Positions 15,425 to 51,615 of a DNA stretch of 64,000 nt are shown in pieces. The stretch comes from Emiliania huxleyi CCMP1516 (lineage: Eukaryota): the NCBI RefSeq assembly GCF_000372725.1, contig NW_005202368.1, positions 294,293-358,292 on the forward strand, given 5' to 3'. The notes below the pieces were generated by a model that saw nothing but the letters and a program-made list of their open reading frames with translations, ran no database searches and had not been told where the DNA came from. Position 1 is the stretch's first letter, and each line of letters opens with the position of its first letter. Position numbers and translations under genes: made by a program.

Positions 15425-15592
15425 AGGTAGGTAGAAAGGTGAAGAAAACAGTCAGGCTTGGACTGGACACCAACGCGGTATGGCGGTAGGCGGCCCCAAG
15501 AGTTGTTCACAGCTGGGGGGGGAACAACTCTCACAGAAACTTCTGGGAAACAACTCCCACGAGAACGCCGTTCCCAGATCTCCCACCTTTCG

Positions 15593-18500
15593 ATGCGCCT
15601 CCTTCTGCTCGGCCTGCTTGCGGGGCTCGCGGTCGCCGAGAGCGGCCCGACCCTCATCCCTGGCGACGCCCTCGGCTCGGACTCGGCCATGCACGCCAGC
15701 ATCGACCACGACTGGAAGACCTGCTCCGCCTTTCACGGCTGCCGCGGCGGCGACCGTTCGGAGAAGATGGTGAGTGTCGAACTCGCCGGCGCCGGCGCGG
15801 CCGGATCGAGCGCACATCACGCGCCGAACGCCTCCGCGTCGCTCGCCGGCGCGGAGGCCCACAAGTGCACCATGAACGAGTGCCCGTGCGCGACCAGCGA
15901 GTCTGGGGACGCAAACGTGTGCTGCAAGGACAACAAGTTGAGCGAGTTCTCGATCGAGGGCGATTCGGCGCGCGCCACTCCTGGCCGGCCCTCCCTCCGC
16001 GAGGGCTGGTGGTGCTGCGCCTCTGCGGCGGTGCTGCTCCTCGAAGCGTGCGGCGCCTGCTGGCTGCTGCTGGGGCAGCGGGCGCCGCGCTCCGGTGCAG
16101 CCTCGCGGCAGCGATCCAGCAAGGCGGTCCGTCCCCGGCTGAGCAAAAAGGGCCGCGGCCGCGGCTCGCACCGGCGACCGAAGCCGCGCGGACCGCAGGT
16201 GCGCAAATGCAAGTCGCCGTCCGGCTCTGGCGGCACTGGCACTAGCGCTGGCGCCGCCGCCGGCGCTGGCATCCGCTGCACTGGCATCCGCGCCGGTCTC
16301 AAGCAGGCAACCGGCCGCGTGCAGAGCAGCTTTGCGGGTGCCCCATGCGCCACCATGTGCATCTGGTCTTGCTTCATCCGCACCGGCCTCTGCGCGTCTG
16401 TGGCCGGCCCGGCGGCCAGCAGGGCGGTCCTTCCCCGGCTGAGCAAGAGCCGCAGCTCGGTGGCCTACTTGCTCCTGCTGCTCGTTTTCTTCCCCGTGGC
16501 TCGGGCTGGCTCGGGCGAGGCTGGCTCGGGGGGCGAGGCTGATTGCGCGGACGATGCAGCGTTCAGAGATCCTTACGGCTACAGTTGCTCCGACTGGCTC
16601 GGATATGATTGCAGCTTCTACACGGGCTACAGTCCAGTTGAATTGGCCATTCTCCGCGAAAACTGCCCTCTCAGCTGCGGCAGTTGTTCGCCACCGCCGC
16701 TCCAGCCGCTACCCCCGCTGCCGCCACCACCACCCTCTGCACCGCCGACGCCACCTCTGCTCCCGCCACCACCGCCGCCGCCACCTCTGCTCCCGCCACC
16801 ACCGCCGCCGCCACCTCTGCTCCCGCCACCACCGCCGCCGCCGCTGCCTCCGCCGTGTCCGCCGACGCCGCCACTGTCCCCCTCCCCCTCTCCCCTCTTC
16901 CTCGACCAAACCCCATCCGCAGACGGCCGCCGCCGCTTCCCGCTGCCGGCCGTCCGCCCAAGCGGCAGTTTTGCTTACCCGCCGTTGCCAAACTGCTCCG
17001 CCACCAACAGGGTCGGGTGCATCGGTGTCCCAATGACGGTTCTGTCGCCGCTGGCAGCCTGGAACGGCTCGCTGGAGTTGGCGGGCGATGTGGCCGACTA
17101 CTTCACTTCGGCCGTCGATGGAGACTTGGGGTTCACCATCCCTGGAGGGAGCAGCAACACTTACTCCACTTCGGTGGCGGACGTCGACGGGGACGGGAAC
17201 ATGGACGTCGTCGTCGGCAACTACGGCGAAGAGAACCAAGTCCTCTTTGGGAGCGCGGGCGGAAGGACCTTCTCCGAGGTCGCCCTTCCTGGAGGGAGCA
17301 GCAACACTTACTCCACCTCGGTGGCGGACGTCGACCGGGACGGGAACATGGACATCGTCGTCGGCAACTACGGCGAAGCGAACCAGGTCCTCTTTGGGAG
17401 CGCGGGCGGAAGGACCTTCTCCGAGTTCGCCCTTCCTGGAGGGAGCAGGAACACGTACTCCACCTCGGTGGCGGACGTCGACGGGGACGGGAACATGGAC
17501 ATCGTCGTCGGCAACTACGGCGAAGCGAACCAGGTCCTCTTTGGGAGCGCGGGCGGAAGGACCTTCTCCGAGTTCGCCCTTCCTGGAGGGAGCAGCAACA
17601 CTTACTCCACCTCGGTGGCGGACGTCGACCGGGACGGGATCGTGGACGTCGTTGTCGGCAACCACGGCACAGAGAACCAGGTCCTGTTTGGGAGCGCGGG
17701 TGGGAGGGCCTTCTCCGAGGTCGCCCTTCCCGGAGGGAGCAGGTACACTTACTCCACCTCGGTGGCGGACGTCGACCAGGACGGGAACATGGACATCGTT
17801 ATCGGCAACCTCGGCGCAGCGAACCAGGTCCTCTTTGGGAGCGCGGATGGAAGGACCTTCTCCGAGTTCGCCCTTCCTGGAGGGAGCAGGTACACTTACT
17901 CCACCTCGGTGGCGGACGTCGACCGGGATGGCATCCTGGACATCGTCGTCGGCAACTCCGGCGCAGCGAACCAGGTCCTGTTTGGGAGCGCGGGTGGGAG
18001 GGCCTACTCCGATGTCGCCCTTCCTGGAGGGAGCAGGAACACGTACTCCACCTCGGTGGCGGACGTCGACCAGGACGGGATCNNNNNNNNNNNNNNNNNN
18101 NNNNNNNNNNNNNNNNNNNNNNNNNNNNNNNNNNNNNNNNNNNNNNNNNNNNNNNNNNNNNNNNNNNNNNNNNNNNNNNNNNNNNNNNNNNNNNNNNNNN
18201 NNNNNNNNNNNNNNNNNNNNNNNNNNNNNNNNNNNNNNNNNNNNNNNNNNNNNNNNNNNNNNNNNNNNNNNNNNNNNNNNNNNNNNNNNNNNNNNNNNNN
18301 NNNNNNNNNNNNNNNNNNNNNNNNNNNNNNNNNNNNNNNNNNNNNNNNNNNNNNNNNNNNNNNNNNNNNNNNNNNNNNNNNNNNNNNNNNNNNNNNNNNN
18401 NNNNNNNNNNNNNNNNNNNNNNNNNNNNNNNNNNNNNNNNNNNNNNNNNNNNNNNNNNNNNNNNNNNNNNNNNNNNNNNNNNNNNNNNNNNNNNNNNNNN

Positions 18501-21500
18501 NNNNNNNNNNNNNNNNNNNNNNNNNNNNNNNNNNNNNNNNNNNNNNNNNNNNNNNNNNNNNNNNNNNNNNNNNNNNNNNCGGTGGCGGACGTCGACCGGG
18601 ACGGGAACATGGACGTCGTCGTCGGCAACTACGGCGCAGCGAACCAAGTCCTCTTTGGGAGCGCGGGCGGAAGGAACTTCTCCGAGGTCGCCCTTCCTGG
18701 AGGGAGCAGGAATACGTACTCCACCTCGGTGGCGGACGTCGACGGGGACGGGAACATGGACATCGTTGTCGGCAACTACGGCGAAGCGAACCAGGTCCTG
18801 TTTGGGAGCGCAGGTGGGAGGGGTTTCACCGAGTTCGCCCTTCCTGGAGGGAGCGGGCAAACTCGCTCCACTTCGGCGGCGGACGTCGATGGGGACGGGA
18901 TCCTGGACATCGTCGTCGGCAACAAGTACGCAGCGAACCAAGTCCTCTTTGGGAGCACGGGCGGAAGGACCTTCACCGAGGTCGCCCTTCCTGGAGGGAA
19001 CACAAGTACTCGCTCCACCTTGGTGGCGGACGTCGACGGGGACGGGAACATGGACGTCGTTGTCGGCAACTACGGCGCAGCGAACCAGGTCCTGTTTGGG
19101 AGCGCGGGCGGAAGGAACTTCACCAAGGTCGCCCTTCCTGGAGGGAGCAGGAACACGTACTCCACCTCGGTGGCGGACGTCGACGGGGACGGGATCGTGG
19201 ACATCGTGGTCGGCAACTTCGGCACAGAGAACCAGGTCTTTTTTGTTGGCTTCTGCCCGACGGGAGGTGCACAGGTCCACGGCAAGAGCTGGTGCTACAA
19301 GTGCCCTTCCTTCATGGGACTCGCGGGCGCCTCCTGCGTGGAGTGCCTCCCCGACTTTGTGCAGCAGCCCGGGAGCGGAGAGCTCTGCGCATCAGACCCC
19401 TGCCCCCTTGGCGAGCGCCCGTTCGGCAGCGACGCGTGCACCGCTTGCAAGGACAAGCCGGGCGTCTTCTACAACACCAGCGCCGCCGCGGCGCGCACAG
19501 AGCGCGACTCAACCACATGGATTCAACCCAGTTGCGTGGAGTGCCCAATGGGCAGCGTCGCGAACGGTGTCGCCGTCGACGAGTGCTTTGCTTGCGCTGC
19601 GGGTTCGTACCAGAACCTGATTGGCCAGGCCGAGTGCAAGCGGTGCCCCGCGGGCCAGTTTCAGCCGGAGCGCGGACAGACGTCGTGCGACAGGTGTGCC
19701 ACGGGCGGATACTGTGATGATGCCGAGAACTGTGGCGGCGGCTTCACGCCCTGCCCAGCGGGTACATTCAACGAGAAGACGGGTAGCAGCTCGTCCGACG
19801 CCTGTCAGCCGTGCCCCCCCGGAACCTCTAGCCCGACCGCCGGCGCAGACAGCAGCGAGACGTGCGCGAGCTGCCGTGCTGGGACGTTTGGTGGCGAGCC
19901 CGGGCTGAGTGAGTGCACGGACTGCCCTCCCGGCGCGTCGTCAAACCAAGGGAGCGATTCGTGCGAATCGTGTGAGGCGGGCTCTTACGCCGCCAACGCT
20001 GGCCAGGGCCAGTGCATCCCATGTCCTCATCCCCTCGGTAGTGGGCGCGGCGACGTCATTTGCTCCGTCTGCATGAAGGACTACTACCTGCTCTCGAGCG
20101 CCGACCCCGACGACATCTTCAAATCCCCGACCGATTACTGCAAGTCCTGCCCGCCGAACGCCGACTGCCCAGTCAACACGACTCTCCAGTCCCTCGGTAT
20201 CCCGGCCGGCTTCTGGCGCGCTAGCCCCTTCAGCGCCGTGTTGACAGAGTGCGGCGGCTTTGGCGGCGATGGCGAGGCCGGCAAGCAGCGATGCGCCGGC
20301 AGCGAGGCAAAGGCCTCTCGTCGCCGGAGGATGGAGGCTTCGGACGAGTACTGCGCTTCCGGCTTCACTGGCCCGGAGTGCCAGCTCTGCGTCGCAGCGA
20401 ATCACTACCTCGTCGACGGATACACGTGCGAAGAATGCGCTCCGCGCGCCGCTGTGGCTGGCCGCATTGTCGCCCTCGTCATCGGTGCCTGTATTGCCTG
20501 TGGCCTCGCGGTTTGGGCCTACAGCATGACGAAATGGCGGAAGGAGCGCTTCATCGGCCGCGTGCTCCGCTTTGCCGATCGTGCCGTCTACATTTACGTC
20601 GCGATCGGCCTCACGGCCAAGACCAAGGTTCTAATAGATGCTCCCGTTGGTTGGGAACCGATATTAGCAAGCGCCGACCTCGGTGATAGTCCATATTAGC
20701 AAGCTAATAACCGACCTGATAGGTGCTCTTTGGATTCTACCAGATCTGCACCGTGTTGTCCTCCACCTACTCGGCGCGGCTGCCGCCAGAGTACACGGGC
20801 TGGACCGACAAGCTGGCTAATACGGTCTCAATCGACTGGTCTGGCCTTTTCCTGCCGCAGCAGTGCCTCGGCTACGATTTGCGGCTGCTCGCCATCGCTC
20901 TCTCGCCCGTCGCCTTCATCGCACTGCTCATGGCAGCCGGGATAAGCCTGCGGCTCTACCGCTGGCGTGCCGCGCCGCCACCGCGCCCAATGGAAGCGAC
21001 GCCGGGAGCCGACACCGATGCAGCATTCGGCCTCGTGGAAGCATCGATGTCGGTGATGTCGGCGATCGCTGACGCGATAAACGCAGACGAGGACGCTCCG
21101 CGTGCGGCGCCGTGGTATGCTGAGGCGGCCCTCGGCGTCCTCGATCTCACGCCTGCCGGTTTGGTGCTCATCTTCTGCTTCGTGCCCTCCATCAGCGCCT
21201 CCATCTTCCGCGCGTGGTCATGCAAGGTAATGCCCCCAAACTGTTGACTGCTGCCGAAACCGACCCCCCTTCAGCGCTCGCCGTGTGTCGCTCATAGGCC
21301 TACACCATCTCTCCGCCCGACTCGCCTCTCGAGCAGGTCTCCTACATGCGGCTGGACGCGAGCGTCGAATGCTACACCGAGGATCACGAGTCCATCGCCG
21401 ACCTCGCCATCGGCCTTATCGCCCTGTGGCCTGCGGGCTCGCTGATCCTCTTCACTTCGCTCCTCGTCGCCTGCTACAAGCCGCTACAGGCCAAGAGGCC

Positions 21501-23488
21501 GAATGCCCTGACGCGGGCCACCGGCTTCCTCCACCGGGAGTACAAGAAAAAATGCTACTGGTGGGAGGTGGTCGAGCTGGCGCGCAAGCTCGTGCTCACG
21601 GGCTTCGTGCTGCTGATCCCGGAGAAGAGCGCCTTCCTTCGCCTCGTGGTGGCGACCCTCGTCTGCTCCTTCTACGCCGTCGTGCTCGCCGTCGTGCGGC
21701 CCTTCAAGCGGGTCGAGGATAACGTGCTGGCCGTGGTGCGCCAGCCACCCCTCACCCCCTTTACACTTGCTAAAGCGAGGCACGGCTTGGATTGCAGGCC
21801 ACCAGCCTCGTGCTCCTCCTCCTCTTCCTCGCCGCGAACTGGACGACCATCTTCCTCGGTATCATTGAGCGCTCCAGCGTCGACACCGCCGATGCAGTCC
21901 TCGGCTTCGATAACCTGTCTGAGATCATCAACTCGATGCTCGTCCTCGTCGGCGTGACGCTGCTCTTCTTCCTCATCGGTGCCGTCTTCTCCGCCCGCCA
22001 CGCCAAGGAGGTTCCCACGATCCGCCTCGTCTCGACCAACCAGCCGCCCGAGCTGAGCGTCGGGATGGGCATCACGTGGCATCTCTTCAACAGCCACATC
22101 TGGAGTACCGGTCAAGACGCCGTCGCGGTCATCAAGAAGCAGCTGCAGATCCTGCTGCCTGGCATCAAGATCTTCCTCGACGCGCGCGCATGCTGCCCAG
22201 TCGCGCTGCATGGCGAGCAAAGCCCCTCTGACGCACCGCGGTGCGCGCATAGGTAGATGACCTCAAGGATATCGGAGCGCTCGAGGAGTACATCCAGCGC
22301 TCGCAGGTCATCCTCTTCTTCCTCTCTAGGGGCTACTTCAAGTCCAGGGCGCCTCATGCTTCTATCCTGCCTCTGTCATAGCCCAAGCTCCCTTGCCTCA
22401 CCCCGTGCCCGCCTGTGCGCCATAGAACTGCCTTCGAGAGGTCCGCTCGTCGCTCGAGATGGACAAGCCGCTCGTCCTCGTCCAAGAGGCCGACCCGGCC
22501 AAGGGCGGCGGGACGCTACCAGCGCTGCGCGCAGAGTGCCCCGAGGAGCTCCAGCCCGACATCTTTGACAAGGACTGGCCGCTCACGATCTGGTACCGGA
22601 TCAAGGAGTTTCAGATTGTCTCGCTCAAGATCACCGCCGAGGCGCCCCCGCCCGCAGCCAGAGCCCCTCCGCAGTCCTCTCCCTCTCCCGACCAACCCCA
22701 CTTGAACTCTACAGGCGCTGCTCCTTTGTTCGCCCAACTTTCTGGACAGCACCTCCCTTCCGCTCACAGTGACGGGCGAGCTGCGGATCAGGGCATTCGG
22801 CTTCTCCACGTTCGCAAAGGTCTGGGCCTCTCCGGCCAACGCCGGCGCAAAGGAGCTGGCCGATGAGCTCGTCGCCGCCTTTCCCGGCCTCACCGTCTCC
22901 ACCGCCGAGGAGGCTGGCGACGCGACCCACATGCTGCTCTACCTCAACGAGCACAGCTTCAGCGACGAGCGGCTGGCCGAGCAGGTTACGCAGGCGCGCC
23001 AGGACAGGCTGCCGATCGTCATGGCGCACGAGAACGACCCGGACCGCGGCGGCTGCGAGTTCGCCAAGTTTTTTGAGACCACGCCGCAGGTGGAGCGAGT
23101 GACACCCGTCCTGAGCCTCCCCTCCCCCCACAAACCTCTCCTTCCAACGCCGCAGGAGCTCATCGCGGGCGGGCTCTACAAGGACCTCGCGCGCTCGTGC
23201 TTCCCCGGGCGCCACCGCGAGGCGCGCGCTCGCCCCCTCGCCGCCTGGTGGGCGCTCACCGGCCGTCACGCCGCGCTGCTCAACCCGCCCCCCGCGTAGG
23301 CGTCGCTCGTGCTCCTCGCAAAGGGTCTCGGCGCGACTCCGGTCAAGAGCGCCGACCTCAGATCGAGCATCGTGCGCCGCACGTCAACGGCCTTCCGCAG
23401 CCTTGGCGGCGTCCGGCTCCGCGCCTCAGAGCGCTCAACCTCGGGAGAAGCCGAGGCAGCGACGTCGGCATCGGCAGAGCACGTGTAG
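15593..23488 (+). CDS. Receptor-like protein A: ShKT-like Cys domain, poly-Pro, FG-GAP repeat array, GCC2/ephrin-receptor-like Cys-rich repeats, about 8-9 TM helices, TIR plus a second TIR-like domain
   Basis: Signal-like MRLLLLGLLAGLAVA at 15593 (true start uncertain). Inferred introns: 20628-20722, 21227-21297, 21736-21797, 22182-22252, 22349-22425, 22642-22714, 23090-23155, 23222-23299. Splicing gives 'WHLFNSHIWSTGQDAVAVIKKQLQILLPGIKIFLDVDDLKDIGALEEYIQRSQVILFFLSRGYFKSRNCLREV' (TIR). Stop TAG ends at 23488. The frame across the N gap cannot be verified. Confidence 0.85.
17141..19245 (+). repeat. Coding tandem repeat of 147 bp (49-aa FG-GAP/VCBS blades), at least 12 units, interrupted by a gap
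   Basis: Units start at 17141, 17288, 17435, 17582, 17729, 17876 and 18023, and after the gap at about 18696, 18843, 18990 and 19137. Each has the Ca-binding-type motif DVDGDGxxD. Confidence 0.95.
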
Positions 23489-23881: not shown

Positions 23882-24136
23882 ATGCCAGGAGAGAAAGACG
23901 ACCACAAGATTGTACACGCCGACATCACACTCGCAGAGGGAGACGCCGAAGAAGGATTAGGACAGCACAGGCGGATTGGAGTAAGACTAGACGACTGGGA
24001 CGAGGCGGAATGGGCGACGTACGGGTCCATGAAGAACATGTGGCAAATAGGAGGAGAGACGTGGACAAGGACGGGACGACCTCGATCGCGTCCTCTGCCA
24101 GCTTGCGAGGACCGCACGCGCCAGTGGGTCCATTGA
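23882..24136 (+). mobile_element. Possible LINE fragment (end of an AP-endonuclease domain)
   Basis: 'DDHKIVHADI' resembles the terminal SDHxxV motif. The match is short and isolated. Confidence 0.25.
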
Positions 24137-24185
24137 CCACGCCGTATGGCACCTCTCGCGCGTCCACCCGCTCGCACTACACCTT

Positions 24186-24473
24186 TCGCGCGCCTGACCC
24201 AGGCGCGAGAAACGAATCTGCGAGGCGTGGCCGCTTATGCGGTCCGATGGGGAGGAACGGGGCGAGCCCCCTCCAACCCACCCGCGCTAGGTCTCGGGTT
24301 TGACGCATGGGGTCACTCCCGCGAAACTCGTGAACTAGCCGGGGCAGTCGGAGAAGGGGCAACTCCGTGCACTGACGGTCGGCCGCCAGAAAACACGCCT
24401 GCGTGGATCGCGTCACACCAATCCTCGCTACCCAACGCGGCCAAAGAATATCCACCTCGAGAACCTCGAGAAC
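24186..24473 (-). mobile_element. SINE-like dispersed repeat (reverse orientation copy)
   Basis: Reverse complement of the family at 41857-42430, 43667-44015, 50421-50615 and 56381-56577. Confidence 0.8.
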
Positions 24474-25069
24474 ACCTTTCACTCCGCCGCCATCTCCGCC
24501 GCCATCGTTCACCGCCGACGCCCTCACCATTCAGAACTCCCGGCTGCCACCCCAACCGCCGCGCCGCCCGCCGCCGATGGCCCGGCCGCCACCGTCACCG
24601 TTGGCGGCCGCCTCCCGCCCTCCCGCACCGCCGCCCTCGCCACTGCCACCCGCGCCGCCGCCTCGCCAACGCTGCCGCCGACCCACCCTCCCGCCCGCCG
24701 CCGCTGCCGCCACGCCGCCGCTGCCGCCCTCCGGGCCGCCTCCTGCCCCGCCACCTGCCTCGCCGCCGCCCACGCGACTGGCCTCGCCGCCGCCAACGTC
24801 ACCGCCCTCCCCACCGCCCTCCCCACCGCCCTCCCCTCCGCTCTCACCGCCGCCGACGCGCCGCCACGCCGCCTCTGCCTGCCGGCCTCCTGCGTTCTCG
24901 CCCCACCTCCCACACACCACCACCGACCTCCCCGCGCCCCCACACGCCGGCCCCGCGCACCCACGCCACCACCATCGCCCACGTCGCCCTCCCCGACCCC
25001 CACCCCGCGCCCCAGGCTCTTCACAGCTCCGCTCGGGGCGTCCTGGCGCCGCCGCCCCAACCGCTGCGG

Positions 25070-31658: not shown

Positions 31659-34600
31659 ATGAGCTTGTCTGCGGCGGGGGCCGGCGCGGCTGCAGACGCG
31701 CCGCTGCTCGGCCAGCGCGTCCTGCTCGGCGGGCTCTCCTCCCGCCCCGAGCTAAACGGGCAGCGGGGCGTTGCGCAGAGCTTCGAGGGCGGGAGGTACG
31801 CGGTGGCGCTCGAGGGCGGCGGCGAGAGCGTGCGGGTGCGGCCGGGTAATCTGTCGCCGGCTGCGGCGGAGCGGGCGTCGAGCGGTGCCGCGGCAGCCCC
31901 CGATGCGGTCATCGCAGCAGCGGAGCGTGGCGAGGAGGAGGCGGTGCTGGCGTGGCTTGAGGGCGGCGGGCGGGCCGACGCGACGTACGAGAGAGACGGC
32001 TTGAGCGGCCTCACGCTGCTGATGGGCGCCGCCAACAACGGCCACGAGCGAGTGGTCGAGATGGTGCTGCGGGGCGGGGCAGAGGTCAACCTGCAGAACA
32101 GCAGCGGCTGGACTGCGCTGATGATGGCCGCCTTCCAAGGCCACGAGCGGGTGGTCGACCTGCTGATACGGCGCGGCGCGGAGGTCAACTTGCAGAGCAG
32201 CAAAGGCGTCACCGCGCTGATGCACGCCGCTTCCTTCGGCCGCCCCGCCGTCGTGCGGCGCTTGCTGCGGGCGGGCGCAAACACCGCGGCGCGCAATGCG
32301 AGCGGCAAGACGGCGCCGCAGCTGGCCAAGGAGAAGGGCAACACCGAGTGCGTCGAGGCCTTCAAGAAGCACGTCCAGGAGGTGGTGGCGGGACGGCTCA
32401 CGGCGACGGCAGCCGACGGCGAAGGCGCAGGCGGCGCTTCCTCCGGCGGCGCTTCCTCGGCTGGATCGAGCGTCGCGAAAACGCTATCTCCAGCGGTGGC
32501 GGCGGGGCGGGCGTCAAGCGGTGGCGTGGTAGTCTCCGACGAGGTCGTGGCAGCGGCTGAGCGAGGCGAGGAGGAGGCGGTGCTGGCGTGGCTTGACAGT
32601 GGCGGGCGGGCCGACGCGACGTACGAGAGTGACGGCGTCAGCGGCATCACGCTGCTGATGGTCGCCGCTTGCTACGGCCACGAGCGGGTGGTCGAGTTGC
32701 TGCTGCGACACAGTGCAGAGATCAACCTGCAGAACAGCAAAGGTGGCACCGCGCTGATGGTCGCCGCCCGCACCGGCCACGAGCGGGTGGTCGACTTGCT
32801 GCTGCAGCGCGGCGCGGAGATCGACCTGCAGAACAGCAGCGGCAACACCGCGCTGATGGCTGCCGCCGGCTACGGCCACGAGCGGGTGGTCGAGCTGCTG
32901 CTGCAGCGCGGCGCGGAGATCAACCTGCAGGAAAGCGGCGGCTCCACCGCGTTGATGTTCGCCGCCGGCAACGGCCGCGAGCGGGTGGTCGAGCTGCTGA
33001 TTCGGCGCGGCGCGGAGATCAACCTACAGGACAGCGACGGCGACACCGCGTTGATGACCGCCGCCTTCGGCCACCCCGCCGTCGTGCGGCGCTTGCTGCG
33101 GGCGGGCGCAGACGCGGCGGCGCGCAATGCGAGCGGCACGACGGCGCTCCAGATGGCCAAGGAGCAAGGCCACGCCGCATGCGTGCGCGCCCTCGGGGAG
33201 CATGCGGCGGCGGCGGCGGCGGCTGAGAAGGCGGCGAAGGAGGCGGCGTGGGTTGCGGGGGCGGAGGCGAGGGAGGCGGAGAGAGCGGCGGCAGAGGCGA
33301 CTGCGGCGCGGCATGCCGAGGCGCTGCTGGCGGAGGAGGAGGCGGAGAAGGAGGAGCGCGCCAAGGAGAGCAAGAAGGGCAAGAAGAAGAAGAAGAAGAA
33401 GAGCGGCGGCGGCGAGGCAGACAACGAGGCGCCTGGCCCCAGCGCCACCGCCGATTTGCAGCCGCCAACCCCACCGCCAGCCCCATCTCCTCCGCCCGCC
33501 GACGCAGCCGCCATCGCCGCGGCGGACGAGGCGCTGCAGCAGGCAGTGGCCGCTGGCTCGTACGAGGGACTAGCGAGCGCGCTGGAGGCGTACAGCAGCC
33601 TCGCGAGCCCGGCCGTGCTGGCGGCGGCGAGGCGCGCGCGTGACAAGCTCAAGGAGGCGCGGAGGCGGGACAGCCAGCGGTTGCGCAAGGCGCATGGCGC
33701 GGCGATGGGCGCGCTCAAGTCGCTCGACACCGCAGACAGCCCCTCCGCGCTCCGAGCGGGCATCGCCGCCGCCAGGCCGCACGTGGGCGCGCTGCCTGCT
33801 TTGGCCGAGGAGGTTAGCGCGGCAGAATCGAAGCTGGGAGAGCTGTCTGTCGCCGCCGCGCCAGCCGCGGCGGAGGCGGCTGTTGCTCGGCCAGTCGAGA
33901 TAGCCCTGTCGGACCTCACCGCGGCTACCGACGGGTTTGCAGAGGGCAAGCTGATTGGCAGCGGCGGCTTCAGCCACGTCTACGAGGCGTCGGCCGACCT
34001 CCACCTCTCCCTCGCCGCGCCGCCGCAGCTGCGCCACTTGCCGCTCGTCGTCAAGCGGGCAAAGTCGGGCCAGTCGGGCGGCTTGTCTCGGGCGGAGCTC
34101 GAGGTGAAGCTTCTCAAGGCGGTGAGCCACCCGCACCTGCTGCCGCTGCTCGGCTACTGCCTCTCGCCCGACGGCGTCTGCCTCCTCTCGCCGCTGATGC
34201 GCGGCGGCTCGCTCGAGGCGCGGCTGCGTATCTCGGATCCCGACCGAGCGGCGCAGCTCCGGCGGCTGGGGATGGTAGAGCCGCCGAGGCCGCTGACGTG
34301 GCGGCAGCGCGTTCGCATTGCGTGCGAGGCGACCGAGGCGCTCGTCTACCTCCACTCGAAGGGCATCGTGCACCGCGACGTGAAGCCGGACAACATCCTG
34401 CTCGATGAGGAGCTGACCGCCGTGCTCGCCGACACGGGCTTCGCCAAGGACCAGCGGCCGGACGCGTCTGTTCGCTGCCGCTCGACTGCCCTCTACATGA
34501 CCACGGGCTACCTCTGCCCCTCCATCACCAAGGGGGGCGAGTACTCGAGCAAGACGGACGGCTACGCCATCGGCATCACCCTCCTCGTCTGCCTCACCAG

Positions 34601-35276
34601 CCGCTCCGAGGTGCAGCTCACCGACCGGTGCGAGGAGGAGTTTGACGGACTCTGGACCAACATCGACGCGTCCAAGATCGCAGAGGCGGCGGCGGGGTGG
34701 CCGGATTTAGCGGCGCGCGCTGTCAAGGACCTCGCCAAGGCGGGAGACGGGCAGAAGAGCCTCTGCCACGACAGCTTGCGCAACCGCTGCACGCTACCCG
34801 AGGCTCTCACGACGCTCCGGGGGCTGCTGTGTGGCGCACAAGGCGGGGCGGGGGTGGAGGAGGCTGCGCCGGCACCTGGAGACGAGGCCGCTGCGGCAGC
34901 CGCCCGCACCACCGGGTACGAGCCTTCGCCGCTCTCGGTGCAGGTGCGCGGCATGCGCATGGGCGGCGACGCGCAGGCGCGCATCCAGGACAACATGATG
35001 CTCGCCTTCAAGACGCTGATGCCGCGCCTCGACGCTGCTTACGCCTCGCGCTCTGCGGCGGCGCCCGACAGCTTCGAGGAGCGCATCAACTTTTGGCACC
35101 GCGAGTGCGGCCTGCCGACAGAGCTGCGGAGCCAGCTGCACTCGCTGCGCATCTGGGCGAACGCGGCGAGGCACCACGACGCGGCGAGGTGGCGGAGGGA
35201 CGGGCCGCGCAGCGAGGGGGAGGCTTCGCGGCTCGTGGCCGCGGTGACGGAGACGATCGGGGCGATCGAGGGGTAA
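31659..35276 (+). CDS. Ankyrin-repeat / Pelle-IRAK(RLK)-like protein kinase with an N-terminal SH3-like module and a possible HEPN/DUF4145-like C-terminus
   Basis: Intronless 1205-aa ORF. Two ankyrin blocks (3 and 5 TALMxAAxxGH-type repeats). Kinase motifs 'LSDLTAATDGFAEGKLIGSGGFSHVY', 'LTWRQRVRIA' and 'HRDVKPDNILLD'. C-terminal 'LHSLRIWANAARHH'. Confidence 0.9.
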   Translation: MSLSAAGAGAAADAPLLGQRVLLGGLSSRPELNGQRGVAQSFEGGRYAVALEGGGESVRVRPGNLSPAAAERASSGAAAAPDAVIAAAERGEEEAVLAWLEGGGRADATYERDGLSGLTLLMGAANNGHERVVEMVLRGGAEVNLQNSSGWTALMMAAFQGHERVVDLLIRRGAEVNLQSSKGVTALMHAASFGRPAVVRRLLRAGANTAARNASGKTAPQLAKEKGNTECVEAFKKHVQEVVAGRLTATAADGEGAGGASSGGASSAGSSVAKTLSPAVAAGRASSGGVVVSDEVVAAAERGEEEAVLAWLDSGGRADATYESDGVSGITLLMVAACYGHERVVELLLRHSAEINLQNSKGGTALMVAARTGHERVVDLLLQRGAEIDLQNSSGNTALMAAAGYGHERVVELLLQRGAEINLQESGGSTALMFAAGNGRERVVELLIRRGAEINLQDSDGDTALMTAAFGHPAVVRRLLRAGADAAARNASGTTALQMAKEQGHAACVRALGEHAAAAAAAEKAAKEAAWVAGAEAREAERAAAEATAARHAEALLAEEEAEKEERAKESKKGKKKKKKKSGGGEADNEAPGPSATADLQPPTPPPAPSPPPADAAAIAAADEALQQAVAAGSYEGLASALEAYSSLASPAVLAAARRARDKLKEARRRDSQRLRKAHGAAMGALKSLDTADSPSALRAGIAAARPHVGALPALAEEVSAAESKLGELSVAAAPAAAEAAVARPVEIALSDLTAATDGFAEGKLIGSGGFSHVYEASADLHLSLAAPPQLRHLPLVVKRAKSGQSGGLSRAELEVKLLKAVSHPHLLPLLGYCLSPDGVCLLSPLMRGGSLEARLRISDPDRAAQLRRLGMVEPPRPLTWRQRVRIACEATEALVYLHSKGIVHRDVKPDNILLDEELTAVLADTGFAKDQRPDASVRCRSTALYMTTGYLCPSITKGGEYSSKTDGYAIGITLLVCLTSRSEVQLTDRCEEEFDGLWTNIDASKIAEAAAGWPDLAARAVKDLAKAGDGQKSLCHDSLRNRCTLPEALTTLRGLLCGAQGGAGVEEAAPAPGDEAAAAAARTTGYEPSPLSVQVRGMRMGGDAQARIQDNMMLAFKTLMPRLDAAYASRSAAAPDSFEERINFWHRECGLPTELRSQLHSLRIWANAARHHDAARWRRDGPRSEGEASRLVAAVTETIGAIEG

Positions 35277-41856: not shown

Positions 41857-42447
41857 CTCGAGGTTCTCGAGGTGGATATCCTTTGGCCGCGTTGGGTAGC
41901 GAGGATTGGTGTGACGCGATCCACGCACTTGGAGCACTTGGAGTGCAGTCATTCACCGCACATCCAGGGCCGGGGAGCTCAGAAGCGCACCCAGCGGGCC
42001 GGATGATTGGCATCGGGTTGCGGGCAAGAGAGCCCTAGCCCCGGGGGTGCGCGTTCGCAGGGCAAGGGCCTTAAAGTAAACACGGGTCTCGCAGGCGTGT
42101 TTTCTGACGGCCGACCGTCAGCGTGCACGGAGTTGCCCCTTCTCCGACTGCCCCGGCTAGTTCACGAGTTTCGCGGGAGTGACCCCATGCGTCAAACCCG
42201 AGACCTAGCGCGGGTGGGTTGGAGGGGGCTCGCCCCGTTCCTCCCCATCGGGCCGCATAAGCGGCCACGCCTCGCAGATTCGTTTTCGCGCCTGGGTCAG
42301 GCGCGCGGGGCATCCCCCGGGTCGCTCGACCAGCGATCCGAAGAGTGGCCGCTATGCGAAGGAAAGAGTGGGGCCCTCGGGGTACGCCTCCATCCGGCCC
42401 CCTCCGAGGGGGGAAGGGAATTGCGGGGTGGGCCTCTCTATCTCCCA
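41857..42447 (+). mobile_element. SINE-like element flanked by a 22-bp direct repeat (putative TSD)
   Basis: actgtgaacagtcgttatctct occurs at 41835-41856 and 42448-42469. The body matches 4 other copies in the window. Confidence 0.75.
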
Positions 42448-43666
42448 ACTGTGAACAGTCGTTATCTCTATACTAGCAGGTTGGCTCGCTAGTCGCTCGC
42501 CGGCCCGCGCAGCACGCGCGGGCCTTTTTTGTGGTCGGATGTTGGTCGTCTCGAATTTGATCGTGGGCAGGGCGTGAGAAAGCTGGACGGCTCGGTCGAT
42601 GCGAGCCACCAGCTCGTGAGCGACGGGCGCGACGGGTTCCTCGGCGTAGGCTTGGGCGTGGTGAGCAGCGCCGGCGAGAGAGGGACGGCATGCGGCTCCG
42701 AAACGAGCCGCACGGGCTTCATCTGGGCCGCCGAGGCCACCTCCTTGGTCGCGGTGGCGGGCGTGAAGGCGAGGTGGGCCGAGGCAAGCGCTGAACGTGC
42801 CGTGCCGCCTTGCGCCCCTGAGGAGGGACGAGTGTGTGGGGTGCCACGGGCGGGGGGAGGGCACCCCCACGAGGGGCTGCGCTGACGCCGCCTGCCACCC
42901 CACGCACGCCACTGACGCTGTGGGGGCGGCACGATCGAACGCGCTGGTCGGGCGGGCCGTCTGAGTCGCCCAAGCGGTGCTCTGCCGGCCGGTGGACGCG
43001 AGGGTGGCCCAAGAGGGCTCAAAGTACGGAGCCGATACCCGGCCGTCCCGGACGCGTGGCACGCGGGCCAATGGTCCAGCCGTCCTGTGCATGGCTGGAG
43101 CGAAGGAGGGAGAGCTCAGGAGGGCGACGGGGCAGGGAAGGGGGCGATGCGATGCGGCGAGGTCTAATCGGCGGCGTGGAGAGAGGAGGTGCCAAAAGGC
43201 GACTATAGAGAGGCCTCTACGGGTGATATAGTGCGCCATGCCGGCGGGAGAGGTCTCTCACCGCCCCCCGGGCCGTCTCGAAGGGCCGTGCAGCCCACGC
43301 CACGAGGCGCTGCTGGCGGGAGCCTGGAAGGACTTGGCCTCGTTGCACCGCGCCGCGTTGATTCGCGACCACCGTCGGCCGCGGACGGCGTCGGCGTGGC
43401 GGCCGCGGGCGCTCGCGAGACGCGCCGCTCTGCGCTGGTTCGGTTCGTTCGACTCGTTGTGCCGCCGCACGCCCGGCGGCCGCGGGTCCCAGTCTGCAGA
43501 AGTGGTTGCGCGGGCCTCTTCCTTTCGGCCGCGGGACGGCGTCGGGCACGTCGTCGGTCGCAACAGCGGCGCGGCGAGCCGCGGCACGTCGTTGCTGGCG
43601 CTGGTGGTTTGAGGTTGGCATCGTCCAGAGCTCGGTCGACGAGTCTAGAGCTACAGCTGGCCGAGG

Positions 43667-44015
43667 GTTCTCGAGGTTCTCGAGGTGGATATCCTTTGGC
43701 CGCGTTGGGTAGCGAGGATTGGTGTAACCCGAGCCACGGAGGCGTGTTTTCTGGCGGCCGACCGTCAGTGCACGGAGTTGCCACTTCTCCGACTGCCCCG
43801 GCTAGTTCCCGAGGTCGTCGGGTGTGACCCCTTCGTCCCCCGAGACCTAGCGCGGGTGGGTTGGAGGGGGCTCGCCCCGTTCCTCCCCATCGGGCCGCGT
43901 GAGCGGCCTCGCCTCGCAGATTCGTTTTTCGCGCCTGGGTCAGGCGCGCGGGGCATCCCCCGGGTCGCTCGACCAGCGATCCGAAGAGTGGCCGCTATGC
44001 GAGGGAAAGAGCGGG
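43667..44015 (+). mobile_element. SINE-like dispersed repeat copy
   Basis: Begins 'ttctcgaggttctcgaggtggatatcctttggccgcgttgggtagcgagg', like the copy at 41857. Confidence 0.8.
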
Positions 44016-44163
44016 GCCCGAGGGTGCCACATTTGTGCGGAAAGTGGGAAATATATCTCTTTGATGCGCAGCTATTCATAGCCGCGCCTGTTGTTTGTGT
44101 GTGTATCCGCGCTCTTGGCGCGATTACGAGACCTAGGCGTAATCGCTCTCGTACGAGACCTAG

Positions 44164-44280
44164 GTGGCAGACGCGCTCGAGATGCCGTTCCCGGACGAGT
44201 CGTTCGACCTTGTCAGGTCGCTCGAGTCGGGGGAGCACATGCCCGACAAGGAGAAGTTCGTCTCAGAGCTCACGAGAGCT
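44164..44280 (+). pseudogene. Isolated fragment of gamma-tocopherol methyltransferase (VTE4-like SAM methyltransferase)
   Basis: 'VADALEMPFPDESFDLVRSLESGEHMPDKEKFVSELTR' closely matches the VTE4 family motif FDLVWSMESGEHMPDK. No other exons were found nearby. Confidence 0.75.
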
Positions 44281-44526: not shown

Positions 44527-45762
44527 CTAATTTGGCTGCGCCAAAGCTGGGCCAAAGACATCGAGATGGATGCTCCGCGCGCCCGCCGCCTTGAGCGCCG
44601 CGGACATGTCCGCGAGGAAGGGCGGCGGGCCGCAGAGGAAGAAGTCGCATTCCGCCAGGTACGGCTTGAGGGCGCCCTCCACGAGCGCTGCCGCCTCTGG
44701 CCGCCCGCCCGCGTCTGTGTAGTGGAAATGCGTCCCGGCACTGCTAGCCTCCATCTCCTTCCGAAAGGGGTGCGCCGCCTCGTCCCTGTCTATGTGCAGG
44801 ACGAACTTGACCTGCTCGGGCGCACTGTCGAGAAAGCACTTCATCGGCGTCGCGCCCACCCCTGCCGAGCAGAGCACCGCCGGGCGGCCGCTCAACTTGA
44901 ACGTGCCAAAAGGTGCGGAGACGCCGACGACGTCGCCCTCCTTCATGCCGTGGAGGGCGGAGGAGACGAAGCCGCCCTCGACAAGTTTCGGGCAGCACTG
45001 CAGGTAGTCCTTGCCGGGCGCGTTCGTCACGGTGTAGTGGCGTGGCGTCGAGCCCTGCTTGTGCAGGTGCAGCGTCAGGAACTGGCCTGGCGTGAAGTCG
45101 ATTGGTCCGGCGCCGTCGACAGGCTTGAAGGTGAGCTCCACGCAGTCCGTCGCGACGCGCCGGGTCCCAGCCACCCTGAAGTCCTTCACCCCCTTCCAGC
45201 CGCCACGCCGCCCCGCCGACTCGGCGTAGAGCTTTGCCTCCAGCTCACAAAGGTTCTTGGCGAGAGCAAGCACGGCCTCGCTCCAACCCTCGCCAACCTC
45301 TGGCGTGACAGCGTCGCCCATGACGTGCCCGATAGACTCCATCAGGTTCTGGTGCACGATCGAGTAGTGGCGCGGCTTGACGCCGAGGCCGCAGTGTTTG
45401 TGAGCGATGATCTCCAGCGCCCCCGTCAGCTTGGACAGGTCGTCGATGGAGGTGGCGTAGGCTACGACTGCGTTGGCCAGCGCCATGCGCTGCAACGGCG
45501 GCTCCTTGAACTGATTGGCCGGGTTGAAGAAGGCCTTTGCTTCAGGGCTGTTGCTGAACATGCGAGGGTAGAAGTCGTCGACGATCTCTCTCACCTTGGG
45601 TGCGACCGCCGGTGCTGTCGCCTTGACGATCGCGGCGAAGGGGCAGCCAGACATAGTCACCGCCGGAGACGTCGACTTGACGATTGCGGTGGAGGGACAG
45701 CCAGACATGGTGTCTGCCAGAGATGTCGAGTAGCCGATCGCGGCGGAGGGGCAGCTAGACAT
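44527..45762 (-). CDS. hmp: Flavohemoglobin (nitric oxide dioxygenase), intronless
   Basis: Globin domain (FYxxMF, FNxANQ, IAHKH, HY), FAD-binding motifs (PGQF, RHYTV, GFVS) and NAD-binding motifs (SAGVGATPM, LCGP, FGP). Alternative starts at 45762, 45708 and 45654. Confidence 0.95.
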   Translation of the reverse strand: MSSCPSAAIGYSTSLADTMSGCPSTAIVKSTSPAVTMSGCPFAAIVKATAPAVAPKVREIVDDFYPRMFSNSPEAKAFFNPANQFKEPPLQRMALANAVVAYATSIDDLSKLTGALEIIAHKHCGLGVKPRHYSIVHQNLMESIGHVMGDAVTPEVGEGWSEAVLALAKNLCELEAKLYAESAGRRGGWKGVKDFRVAGTRRVATDCVELTFKPVDGAGPIDFTPGQFLTLHLHKQGSTPRHYTVTNAPGKDYLQCCPKLVEGGFVSSALHGMKEGDVVGVSAPFGTFKLSGRPAVLCSAGVGATPMKCFLDSAPEQVKFVLHIDRDEAAHPFRKEMEASSAGTHFHYTDAGGRPEAAALVEGALKPYLAECDFFLCGPPPFLADMSAALKAAGARSIHLDVFGPALAQPN

Positions 45763-46411
45763 GGCGCGGTGGCTAACGAGCCGGACGCCGCGCACGGAGG
45801 TCATGGGTGAGGTCAAAGGCCGGCAAGGAGATTGCTGACACGTTCAGGCAGGACGTGTTGGCGGCGCCCTTATTGCAAGATAAAAAATCTGGGTGCACCC
45901 AAGTGTCAAGCGTTGAGCACCGGTGTCTCTGGGAATGGTAATAGTATTCCGCATTCATTGCGAGGGCGGACGGTCTCGGGAACCGTACCCATACTACTCA
46001 AAAGTACAATATCTACCACAAAGCATGCAGCAGGTGGGCGTGCGGAGCGTCGGGCATCGGCTCGCCATCCCGGGAGCTTCCCTTGAGCGGCCCGGGCTGG
46101 GACCGACCGCGGGAGGCTGCCTGCCTGCACCAACCAACCAACGGACATGAGCGATCCGCAGTCGTCGAAGAGCCCCCCCCCCCCCCCCCCCTGCTAGTGT
46201 CTGTCGTCGTTCCTACCCCTGATCCTACCCCACGGCACGCTAATGTCTGTCATCTCCAGCGCACAAAAGAAAAATTTGGTTATCCCGCAGGAAACCGGCG
46301 CTCAACCAACACCCCCTTGTTACACCCCACCACCCGAGCTGCAGCAGGTGAGGAAGCTGTCCGCGTCTCTGCTCGGCACGCAGTGGGCCGGGATCGAGTC
46401 GCCCCCCGCCA

Positions 46412-48191
46412 ATGCGCCGGAGTGTTTTGCGGATTCGCTCACTCACTGCCGCTGCGGCCTTGTCCGCCGGCTCCACCCTCCGCTGCGAGCCCTCCGCTCC
46501 CTCAGCAGCCAAGCAGCAGGAGCGCGCGTCGAAGAGTCTCGCCATGCAGCAGGAGGTTTCGGCCGCCGAGAATAGCGGTGCGGCCCGCTTCAACGCCGCC
46601 CAGAACCCGTCCACCTTCCGCGTCGACGTCTCTGTTCAAGCCGAGCCGGAGGTCGCCGCGGCGAAGCGCTTTGAAGAGGAGCTGGACAACGCTCTCGATC
46701 ACCACGCAAAGCTTACCAAGGCCTACTCGCCACCGTCCCTGACTCTCCCACTCGCCACCGTCCCTGACGACTGCTACCAGCATGGCGGCCGCCCTCACCG
46801 CGCCTCCCCCCGTCCTCAAGGTTGACGCCGTCCGTGTGGCCGCCATCGAGGCGCTGCCGCGCATCAAGGCGCCCCTCACCATGGCGCCCCACGTGCCGCC
46901 GCCCATTGAGCGGAGAACGCCGGCCCGCCTCGTCGTCGACTTGTACAGCACGGAGAAGACGATGCCTGTGTCGCCATCCTGCAAGTACCCGTTCTGGACT
47001 TTCAACGACGGCGTGCCGGGGCCGATGATCCGGGCCCGCGTCGGGGACGTGCTCGAGGTACCTACGGCCGCCTCTCCGCCGTAGCCCTTCTCCTCTCGGT
47101 CGCCCCCTCCGCGCCGCGGCCCTGACCCCCGACCCGCCTCCACCAGGTGAACTACACGAATCGGGCCGAGTCGGGCATGGCGCACAACATCGACCTGCAT
47201 AGCGTGGTGGGCCCAGGCGGCGGGGGCCCGTGCCTGTATGCGGAGCAGGACGAGACCAAGACAGGCATTTTCAAGTGCACCTCGCCTGGGCTGTTCGTGT
47301 ACCACTGCGCGGCTGCGCCTGTGCCGGTCCACATTGCGAACGGCATCGCGCGCCGCCTGCCCCGCCGAAGCCCCGGCCTCCCCACCCGCAGCGCTGCGGC
47401 GGTGGGCGCCACCCCTACTAGTCGGCATCTCCCTTCTCTTACCAGGCACCCACCCCTCGCCGCAGGCATGTTTGGCCTCGTGCTTGTGGAGCCAGAGGGC
47501 GGGCTGCCCTCCCCACCGCCACACCGCCTCTGTCTGCTCACCGCCACGCCCGAAACGCCTCGCGAAGGCGCTCTCACCGAAGCGTGCGGCGCGCCGCCTC
47601 CGCGCAGGCGGCCTTCCTCCGGTGGACCGAGAATTCTACGTGGTGCAGCACGAAGTGTACTCCGCCGAGGACGAGGAGGGGTCGAGTGTGCTGGAGCTCG
47701 ACTACGAGGCGGGGCTGCGGGAGAGTCCGACGTATGTGGTCTTCAACGGCCGGGAGGGTGCATTGACCGAGAGGCCGCTGATGGCGAAGCAGGGCGAGCG
47801 CGTGAGGATCTACTTCGGCAACGCCGGGCCCAACCTGATCTCGAGCCTCCACGTGATCGGCGCGATCTTTGACAAGGCCACGTCGTGCTAGTTGCGGGTG
47901 GGGCCCGAGGTTTCGAATTAAGTTGCCTATTACTGCTAGGTCTATCGCGAGGGCGACCTGATCTCGCCGCCGGCGCGGGGTATCGGTGTCACGGCGGTTC
48001 CTGCTGCGGGTACCACCGTGGTCGAGTTTGACGCACTCGTACCCGGCAGCTACACCCTGGTGGACCACAGCATATTCCGCATCGACAAGGGCGCCGTGGG
48101 CTTTCTGAAGGTGAAGGGCGAACCGAGGCCCGACCTGTACGACTCCAAGGAGATGAAGGTGTACTGCGATGGGTGCAAGCTGCACTCGTGA
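46412..48191 (+). CDS. nirK: Copper-containing nitrite reductase (NO-forming), 6 exons, with a putative mitochondrial presequence
   Basis: Inferred exons 46412-46720, 46821-47057, 47147-47342, 47466-47498, 47608-47876 and 47940-48191. Motifs WTFNDGVPGPMIR, HNIDLH, YHC...HIANGM, YVVFNG, NAGPN.ISSLHVIG and LVDH supply the type-1 and type-2 Cu ligands. Confidence 0.93.
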
Positions 48192-48258
48192 GAGGGGGAA
48201 TTGATTGATGGGAAGGCGAAACACAGTCCGACCAACGACTGGGACACCAACGCGTTAT

Positions 48259-50235: not shown

Positions 50236-50949
50236 AAAACCAACAACGAACAAGTAATCACGACTCTCACAAGTGTGAAGTGATCACGTACGATGTAGCA
50301 CTAGCAGTTGTGGCTCGTGGTCGTGCGAGTGCATACAACCCGAGCGTGCGAACTGCGAACGCGACCTCGCTCCTCGGGGGCTGCAGGGAAGGGCGGTGTA
50401 AGTAGCCGATCCTCGAAGTCCGCCCCGTTCCTCCCCATCGGGCCGCATAAGCGGCCACGCCTCGCAGATTCGTTTCTCGCGCCTGGGTCAGGCGCGCGGG
50501 GCATCCCCCGGGTCGCTCGACCAGCGATAGCGATCCGAAGAGTGGCCGCTATGCGAAGGAAAGAGCGGGGCCTCGACGCCTCAGTCCGGCCCTCCGAGGG
50601 GGGAAGGGAATTGCGGGAGCAATCCTGGGAGTGCGGCTGCCGATTGAAGTGCTACGGAACACCCGCCATAAAAACGGTATGGCGGTGGAATGCTCTCTAC
50701 TGCCGCGGCGCCCCTGTCGGTGCGAAGGCGCCCGGCGGGGGCCGCGCGCTTGGTCCTTGCTCTCCTTGAGGTGCTCCAAGATTGCAACATCGTGCGGCAA
50801 GAGACAAGACGATACAAGAATTTGCAATTTCCGGCGGAGTTTTTAGTTCCTAGATCAAATCCCGAAGAAAAATAGTACACACGCCTAGCAGCCTAACTAC
50901 GCCACGCATCTCTCCGGTCGGGCCGCGGCGTGGGCTGCGCGCCGGGCTG

Positions 50950-51615
50950 TCAGCAGGACGTCGCGCTCCGGTCGTGGCACAGGTTGGTGATCCAGTGCGT
51001 GTACTCGCCCAGCTCGACGCCGAGCGCGTCGGCGACGTGCTGCAGCAGTGTGGAAAAGAAGTGGATGTTCTTGACGAAGATGGTTGCGTTCTGCATGCGC
51101 ACGATGCCCGTGCACTTGAGCTTGCCATCCTCCAGATACAGGTGCAGCTCGCGGCAGCACTTGTTCATCCCCTGCACCGTCCAATCGTTGGCCTCGCTGC
51201 CGCCCGCGCCGCCCGCCTCGCAGCCCGTGAAGGGGAAGGTGATCGTCGCGCGCTTCGAGAGCGGCTCCAAGCGGAGGCAGTCGATCGCGTTGGCTATCTT
51301 CCGCGTGATGCCTGCGCGGTAGTCGCCCTGATCGCCGCCGCGCTCCTGGAGCTGCCACTGCGCAGCCTCCTCCGGCGTGTACTCCCAGCCCATATTTTTC
51401 TTCGTGTAGTACTCCAGCGCGCCTACCGGGAAGAGCTCCGTTGGCACCGTTGATGCGGCGACAGAGACGTCCTCGATCACCGCGACAAAGTTGCGGACGA
51501 CGTACTCGCCTCCCGGTTGAGTGATCTCGCGGAGGTGAGCGTACAGCTCCTTTGCAGTTGGAAAGTGAACGAACCCGGCGTTGAGGTTCCGGCACGGGGC
51601 GTGTTGGGACGCCAT
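50950..51615 (-). CDS. Divergent thymidylate synthase / dCMP hydroxymethylase-fold protein
   Basis: Intronless 221 aa. 'IDCLRLEPLSKRA', 'KCCRELHLYLEDGKLKCTGIVRMQNA' and 'KNIHFFSTLLQHVADALGVELGEYTHWI' follow the TS motif order. Confidence 0.75.
   Translation of the reverse strand: MASQHAPCRNLNAGFVHFPTAKELYAHLREITQPGGEYVVRNFVAVIEDVSVAASTVPTELFPVGALEYYTKKNMGWEYTPEEAAQWQLQERGGDQGDYRAGITRKIANAIDCLRLEPLSKRATITFPFTGCEAGGAGGSEANDWTVQGMNKCCRELHLYLEDGKLKCTGIVRMQNATIFVKNIHFFSTLLQHVADALGVELGEYTHWITNLCHDRSATSC

Follow-up and report, generated by a model that had tools for sequence, protein, structure and literature searches.

Ribonucleases (RNases) of the HEPN superfamily have to pair as dimers, a step that is helped by the sensor domain in RNase L and Ire1 (PMC10942766). 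RNase L has the architecture ankyrin repeats, pseudokinase and KEN domain (PMC3710099; PMC10942766), and in Ire1 a luminal sensor and a transmembrane segment precede the kinase and the KEN domain. The DUF4145 domain is listed for bacteria, archaea and double-stranded DNA viruses (PMC3710099). A DUF4145 antiphage RNase, RAZR (PD-T7-4), joins a zinc finger to this domain and has R146 and H154 as essential residues (PMC13017515). Here, we describe a gene of the haptophyte Emiliania huxleyi CCMP1516 that is related to these systems by its architecture. It lies in a window of 64,000 nucleotides of GC-rich eukaryotic DNA (contig NW_005202368.1, positions 294,293 to 358,292 of the forward strand; all coordinates below are those of the window) and consists of a single open reading frame (ORF) at 31659..35276 (+), without in-frame stop, for a protein of 1205 amino acids (aa) in which ankyrin repeats, a helical domain, a kinase and an HEPN-type tail follow one another. 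Judged from its sequence, the gene is RNase L-like by architecture, with different parts placed in the same order, and appears to stand outside the RNase L/Ire1 family.

The order of RNase L, from ankyrin repeats through kinase to predicted RNase, is present in the 1205-aa protein, and the convergence on it that an original prediction from the sequence had proposed is supported. The likeness to RNase L comprises this order, a soluble protein, the ankyrin N-terminus, the kinase fold in the middle and the C-terminal HEPN-superfamily domain. The differences are as follows: (i) the kinase is of the type of receptor-like kinases (RLK), Pelle and IRAK, with its catalytic residues kept; (ii) the tail is DUF4145-like, without a KEN profile match; (iii) there is an additional helical domain before the kinase and a predicted flexible linker before the tail; and (iv) the algal family is multi-copy, with interchangeable N-terminal repeats (ankyrin, Sel1 and armadillo). 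With Ire1, the algal protein shares a likely active kinase directly upstream of an HEPN-superfamily domain, but it has neither a transmembrane nor a luminal domain, and both kinase class and HEPN family appear to differ. With RAZR, it shares an arginine eight residues before the histidine and an N-terminally fused sensor, whereas RAZR is bacterial and has no kinase or ankyrin repeats (PMC13017515). The eukaryotic HEPN families DZIP3/hRUL138, CXorf38 and Swt1-like also combine HEPN with shuffled repeat sensors, ankyrin included, and show lineage-specific expansion; in contrast, the listing gives them no kinase and places most of them in animals (PMC3710099, Table 1). The main text of the same paper, which lists fusions of kinase and ankyrin repeats for KEN, does not mention Emiliania or haptophytes, and no description of the algal family was found in a literature search that covered largely open-access listings and the beginnings of abstracts.

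The kinase (aa 745-1058; 33891..34832, +) was recognised by Pfam and by sequence and fold searches, and its similarities place it in the RLK/Pelle/IRAK type. In the phmmer search, the first 53 of the 60 matches listed were plant RLKs, receptor-like cytoplasmic kinases and IRAK, and the named best matches were IRAK4, IRAK1, BIK1 (E 1.6e-26) and PBL2. With the predicted fold, all top 14 VIA matches were IRAK or RLK/Pelle kinases (IRAK4: Z 29.2, root mean square deviation (rmsd) 2.5, 270 aligned). The Pelle/IRAK identity that had been proposed from a few motifs is thus borne out by sequence and fold matches alike; IRAK/Pelle and plant receptor-like cytoplasmic kinases are the best matches in both, and the algal protein differs from them in having DTG for DFG, no Glu at the APE position, ankyrin repeats instead of a death domain and a C-terminal HEPN domain. 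RNase L and Ire1 were not among the matches listed in the sequence and fold searches of the kinase or in the fold searches of the tail, and may be present further down. The Lys K799, the alphaC Glu E815, the catalytic-loop residues D907, K909 and N912 and the Mg-binding Asp D925 are retained. Among the family rows, an HRDxKxxN-type catalytic loop was found in 37/37 and DTG in 35/37 and, in consequence, both can be regarded from the alignment as hallmarks of the whole family. Decay of this particular copy was rejected as an explanation of DTG and of the lost APE Glu, as both are family-wide. Going by these residues, the kinase probably binds ATP and may be active.

The tail (aa 1088-1205; 34920..35273, +) is, very probably, an HEPN domain of the DUF4145 type, a prediction in which three lines agree: (i) DUF4145 profile matches of relatives; (ii) the ranking of fold matches; and (iii) the conservation of an RNxxxH motif. 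Of 86 aligned relatives, 21 matched DUF4145 (PF13643) at E<=0.1, with 9.6e-6 as the lowest E value, and no other family was nearly as common; the relative P0132 reached 26 bits, above the curated Pfam cut-off of 23.1. The KEN domain, which we take to be Pfam Ribonuc_2-5A, was not among the 20 Pfam families matched by any of the 86 relatives at the same threshold; of the 36 PADLOC families matched by them, the 25 listed do not include PD-T7-4. The AlphaFold model of the tail is all-helical, with six helices and a predicted local distance difference test score (pLDDT) of 87.7. In the VIA fold search, the top matches of the tail were 1wwp (Z 9.3, rmsd 3.1, 101 aligned), HepT 5yep (8.5), 2hsb (8.3) and 9fcv (8.1). 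Four rows of the VIA top 14 are proteins that we take to belong to the HEPN superfamily; nine others are HEPN-superfamily proteins by title or according to PMC3710099 or PMC13017515, and one is unplaced. The Foldseek rows with the best template modelling (TM) scores were also HEPN proteins (2hsb, 0.59; Cas13, 0.56-0.57; YutE, 0.50). An all-helical domain of ~100-120 aa with an HEPN fold is therefore indicated by ranking and profile evidence, at middling scores, and the HEPN/DUF4145 identity initially suggested for the tail finds support in all three lines. Clusters in Atlas provide leads only: the best similarity (0.91) was to unnamed clusters, and HEPN/DUF4145 clusters reached 0.83-0.84.

Several results weigh against this identity. 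The tail of the window gene itself matched no Pfam, PADLOC or NCBIfam family, and sequence searches of the PDB with the tail or with tail profiles returned chance matches only and no solved chain. No Foldseek row reached E<=0.001, and the best VIA Z score (9.3) is below the ~13 that VIA asks for helical bundles. Furthermore, the upstream acidic Ex3[KR] element of many HEPN families is not clearly kept in the family: the position of D1125 is D in 56/106 and E in 15/106, and R1123 is found in 77/103.

The predicted active-site segment, R1164-x2-A1167-N1168-x2-R1171-H1172-x-D1174 (35148..35180, +), was delimited by conservation in aligned representatives: R1164 in 107/112, N1168 in 103/112, H1172 in 95/107 and D1174 in 91/107. 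RNxxxH is the most conserved polar segment of the tail, and the conservation of R, N and H among homologues, on which the original prediction had let its HEPN reading depend, was found. The window copy reads ANAARH, with A1167 at the canonical Arg site and R1171 four residues later. Among 149 representatives, 115 show the motif under a pattern that calls for R/H upstream, W/G and N; the remaining 34 were dropped, most of them being fragments or copies that look frameshifted. The Arg stands only at the canonical site in 85 of the 115, only four residues later in 29, at both in 1 and at neither in 0; canonical Arg is thus present in 86/115, and the His in 109/115. From these counts, the window gene belongs to an xNxxRH subclade with a relocated Arg, positions 1167 and 1171 being alternative sites. 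On a tree of 109 rows, from which the motif columns, redundant rows and one long branch had been left out, each Arg site changes 5 times (7 changes on a quick tree), and 5/5 independent pairs are concordant. Among 26 contigs of culture metagenomes, 12 loci could be defined by their flanks, of which 5 read ANAARH and 7 RNAASH, with tails 91-99% identical in DNA (11/12 comparable without gaps). The RNAASH copies are nested among the ANAARH ones, and their Arg codon is AGG vs. CGC in distant members, a codon difference which suggests that the first Arg was regained separately in the RNAASH copies and the second one lost. Recombination between paralogues may contribute to the motif pattern. At the locus L004 (696-1826), the kinase is 80% like that of the distant member P0099 and the tail is 95% like that of the window gene, a possible tail swap or a chimeric assembly. 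On the side of the DUF4145 proteins, the weakest profile match, P0220 (E 2e-4; aligned over 51 columns, probability 93.8), has 480 aa; its N-terminal domain is DUF4145-like and reads ANKARH, i.e., the shifted-Arg form, and its C-terminal domain is unrelated. It looks like a separate N-terminal DUF4145 protein.

The original prediction had regarded nuclease activity as uncertain for want of the canonical Arg. The Ala at that site is confirmed but the doubt is weakened, since most relatives have RNxxxH, an Arg stands four residues later here and R1164 is nearly invariant. R1164 and H1172 share the 8-residue spacing of R146 and H154 of RAZR (PMC13017515), and in some HEPN families the place of the motif Arg may be taken by other basic residues (PMC3710099, section 6). 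The ratio of nonsynonymous to synonymous substitution rates (dN/dS) of the tail is 0.27 over 28 pairs of 8 paralogues and 0.33 over 6 pairs of four copies of the window's subclade, although such pairs are not independent; against three loci, the window tail gives 0.33-0.48. By these ratios, the tail is under purifying selection. RNase activity of the window copy is, in our judgement, rather probable as a prediction from its residues. Against it stand the following points: the canonical Rx4-6H is lacking in the window copy (N and H are kept); the equivalence of R1164 with R146 of RAZR is based on spacing, without an alignment; the five independent pairs yield p 0.0625, and recombination between paralogues could inflate the number of concordant ones; and dN/dS is 0.57 among near-identical copies and 0.48 between the window copy and L031.

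The tail search yielded 25 full-length relatives at E<=2e-40 among 248 candidates and 63 short ones among 94, and a profile from 44 relatives, run against 1.84 billion proteins, gave 149 clusters at 50% identity; such numbers put the tail well outside what chance would give. The closest named relatives are a Chrysochromulina tobinii protein and EMIHUDRAFT_468558 of Emiliania huxleyi, the latter with a likeness of 87% in the tail and of 91% for kinase and tail together. Every member for which an organism is given comes from a haptophyte; since the greater part of the family consists of environmental sequences, its range may be wider. Among 35 longer members scanned, the majority have a kinase, and the N-termini include ankyrin repeats, Sel1 repeats and a cold-shock domain; ankyrin plus armadillo repeats were found at one locus. 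The Ala-rich helical domain before the kinase (aa 615-740; 33501..33878, +), conserved and of no known family, was matched by phmmer in 50/53 long members, self included, whereas five shuffled sequences and the reversed one gave 0 matches. Given that helical domain, kinase and tail are shared while N-termini differ, the constant core of the family consists, on sequence comparison, of these three parts, to which an exchangeable repeat N-terminus is added. The ORFs are intronless, and the similarity between copies ends mostly near the stop codon. Near-identical natural copies have many differing downstream flanks; the 1.2 kb flank of the window copy is found at 96% in two loci. Broken copies occur in the family. 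Among pattern matches, 13 in viral contigs included no relative and 190 in prokaryote genomes no true relative, and P0132 had no match in plasmids. The only prokaryotic match that passed (L081, E 3e-6) was rejected as a relative, as no ORF of its frame contains it and another gene lies antisense to it.

A role as an inducible RNase switch in defence would account for this protein, and we give it about an even chance by analogy with known HEPN enzymes. A trigger, probably infection, would be recognised through the binding of a ligand or a pathogen protein by the variable N-terminal repeats; two copies would then be joined by way of the helical domain and the kinase, and their HEPN tails, once paired, would make up a single active site, with R1164, N1168, H1172 and a second Arg, that would cut cellular and viral RNA and so halt translation. 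The sequence itself shows the reading frame, the order of the domains, the class of the kinase, the family with its conserved motif and the dispersal of its many copies, while in this scheme the HEPN fold is predicted, and dimerisation and RNase chemistry are taken over from known HEPN enzymes. Sensing and a defence role are inferred from the behaviour of the family, whose dispersed expansion, swapped N-termini (ankyrin, Sel1, ankyrin plus armadillo, cold-shock) and broken copies would be typical of defence families. The KEN domain packs rigidly against its kinase. In the kinase-plus-tail model of the algal protein, the two domains are joined by a variable linker (34833..34919, +), predicted to be disordered (pLDDT <50), with a dN/dS of 0.36-0.86 and many indels, for which reason coupling by proximity seems more likely than rigid packing. 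Two points tell against the scheme: a tail on a disordered linker does not imply the rigid kinase-to-RNase coupling of RNase L; and the activation loop is disordered in the kinase model and the APE Glu is lost.

Other explanations must be weighed against an RNase switch in defence. An active HEPN RNase under kinase control might serve purposes unconnected with infection, such as stress signalling, programmed death or regulated mRNA decay, nearer to Ire1 than to RNase L; the structural and motif evidence fits equally, and neither TIR genes nor other immune genes are conserved next to it. On the other hand, a housekeeping stress sensor is usually single-copy, as established for Ire1, while this family is dispersed and multi-copy, with swapped sensors and broken copies, and has no transmembrane or luminal domain, so that we consider such a role unlikely. 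We hold to be just as unlikely that the family was once an RNase and that its xNxxRH subclade is dead or weakened, an RNA-binding or dimerising regulator and possibly a dominant-negative partner of RNxxxH paralogues. The Ala at the canonical site, the occurrence of both motif states among paralogues 91-99% identical and the dN/dS among near-identical copies agree with a dead subclade, but R1164, N1168, H1172 and D1174 are retained, R1171 is present in 29/29 copies without Arg at 1167, and the subclade value of 0.33 indicates purifying selection. In addition, the near-identical natural copies seen are all in the same state, so some genomes may rely on the xNxxRH form.

It is very improbable, in turn, that the tail is an unrelated helical bundle serving protein interaction, its HEPN likeness being coincidental and the gene one of many haptophyte repeat-kinases: the lack of a direct profile match and a Z score middling for a helical domain would suit such a bundle, yet DUF4145 in 21/86 relatives, an HEPN-led structural ranking and RNxxxH conservation are three independent lines against it. 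A toxin-like cassette, selfish or mobile, that spreads through ectopic copies and brings the host no benefit, could explain intronless ORFs whose similarity mostly ends near the stop codon amid many different flanks; given that no mobile-element signature or antitoxin was seen in a search that was not in depth, and that the four-part architecture has long been conserved across 149 clusters, we give this little credence. The defence switch may be put in its fullest form: haptophytes would have arrived on their own at a counterpart of RNase L, made from a Pelle/IRAK kinase and a DUF4145 RNase of bacterial type, and would have multiplied it into a family with swappable sensors, shut-down of translation in giant-virus infection and two interchangeable active-site forms, RNxxxH and xNxxRH, in which a catalytic Arg is moved by one helical turn. 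In this form the proposal is tentative and rather less likely than not.

The original prediction had described about eight ankyrin repeats and a kinase, which Pfam confirmed (Pkinase at aa 761-1050, and Ank in 8 stretches); its order of ankyrin repeats, kinase and tail stands; the conserved helical domain before the kinase had been overlooked. The motifs quoted in it are all present (LSDLTAATDGF...IGSGGF, LTWRQRVRIA, HRDVKPDN, DTG, GYLCPS, FEERINFW and LHSLRIWANAARHH), the codon of H1161 in the tail motif beginning at 35139. The ankyrin repeats, delimited by Pfam and sequence comparison, form two blocks (~aa 84-241, 31908..32381, and ~aa 298-512, 32550..33194; both +) with 69% identity, the second being an internal duplicate of the first. 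Before them lies a small module (aa 13-70; 31695..31868, +) without Pfam family, which was not met in the other proteins of the analysis and which presumably resembles an SH3-like module frequent in algal proteins. Between block 2 and the helical domain, an Ala/Glu-rich helix, a Lys run (KKGKKKKKKK at aa 572) and a Pro-rich linker (33195..33500, +) have no Pfam family. Contigs from four public runs of uncertain kind cover the ORF, thinning at both ends and with many variant pieces, a coverage that cannot show transcription.

The gene had also been placed between two TIR receptor genes. Two paralogous, intron-rich genes, 59-77% alike, do exist at 15458-23400 (+) and 58272-64000 (-), each with FG-GAP and/or ephrin-receptor-like Cys repeats, a region with multiple transmembrane segments and two TIR-like segments; they look like members of a large receptor family of haptophytes. 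That they are TIR genes is no more than a lead, resting partly on a motif that we take to be that of TIR: Atlas gave 0.90 for a haptophyte cluster in which 15% of the members have TIR_2, and 0.93-0.94 between the second TIR-like segment and unnamed haptophyte clusters, and Pfam matched nothing on unspliced pieces of these genes. They lie ~8 kb upstream and ~23 kb downstream of the ORF, with a TPR fragment, a 970-base N gap, a CW-finger gene, a flavohaemoglobin, a copper-oxidase-like gene and a mitochondrial carrier between them. A tblastn search of 5 window pieces against 80 related loci (512 kb; 21 loci of at least 10 kb) gave no match, although diverged TIRs may escape it, and 36 neighbour ORFs of related loci belonged to unrelated families, with no TIR family. 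Linkage is weak evidence in eukaryotes, and a functional link to the TIR-like genes was rejected for lack of conservation; the position near them is best read as chance. Neighbours of paralogues at L009 (6206-8518), L020 (5236-7251) and L036 (10805-13510) include Sel1-U-box, ART-WWE and TPR proteins, none common to the loci.

Other genes of the window stand apart from this subject. The flavohaemoglobin (44527-45816, -), with globin and FAD/NAD domains, adjoins the multi-exon copper-oxidase-like gene (~46780-48200, +), which has a weak Cu-oxidase_3 match and by eye resembles a copper nitrite reductase, so that both might form a pair for nitric-oxide handling. A long ORF of ~220-266 aa (50950-51750, -), without Pfam match, by eye shows what we take to be thymidylate-synthase-like motifs. 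A repeated element at 24100-24530, 42050-42450, 43680-44240 and 50305-50770, whose ORF translations share stretches, is probably a dispersed repeat or a non-autonomous mobile element.

To our knowledge, how bloom-forming haptophytes resist or abort giant-virus infection is largely open, and the family described here is a concrete, testable effector candidate for their antiviral defence. If the proposal is true, it would represent (i) a further independent eukaryotic origin of the kinase-HEPN switch, converging on the exact order of RNase L; and (ii) a case, in a unicellular alga, of an effector RNase attached directly to a Pelle/IRAK kinase. The Arg swap constitutes a natural experiment on HEPN catalysis, and scans for the Rx4-6H motif would call xNxxRH domains dead.

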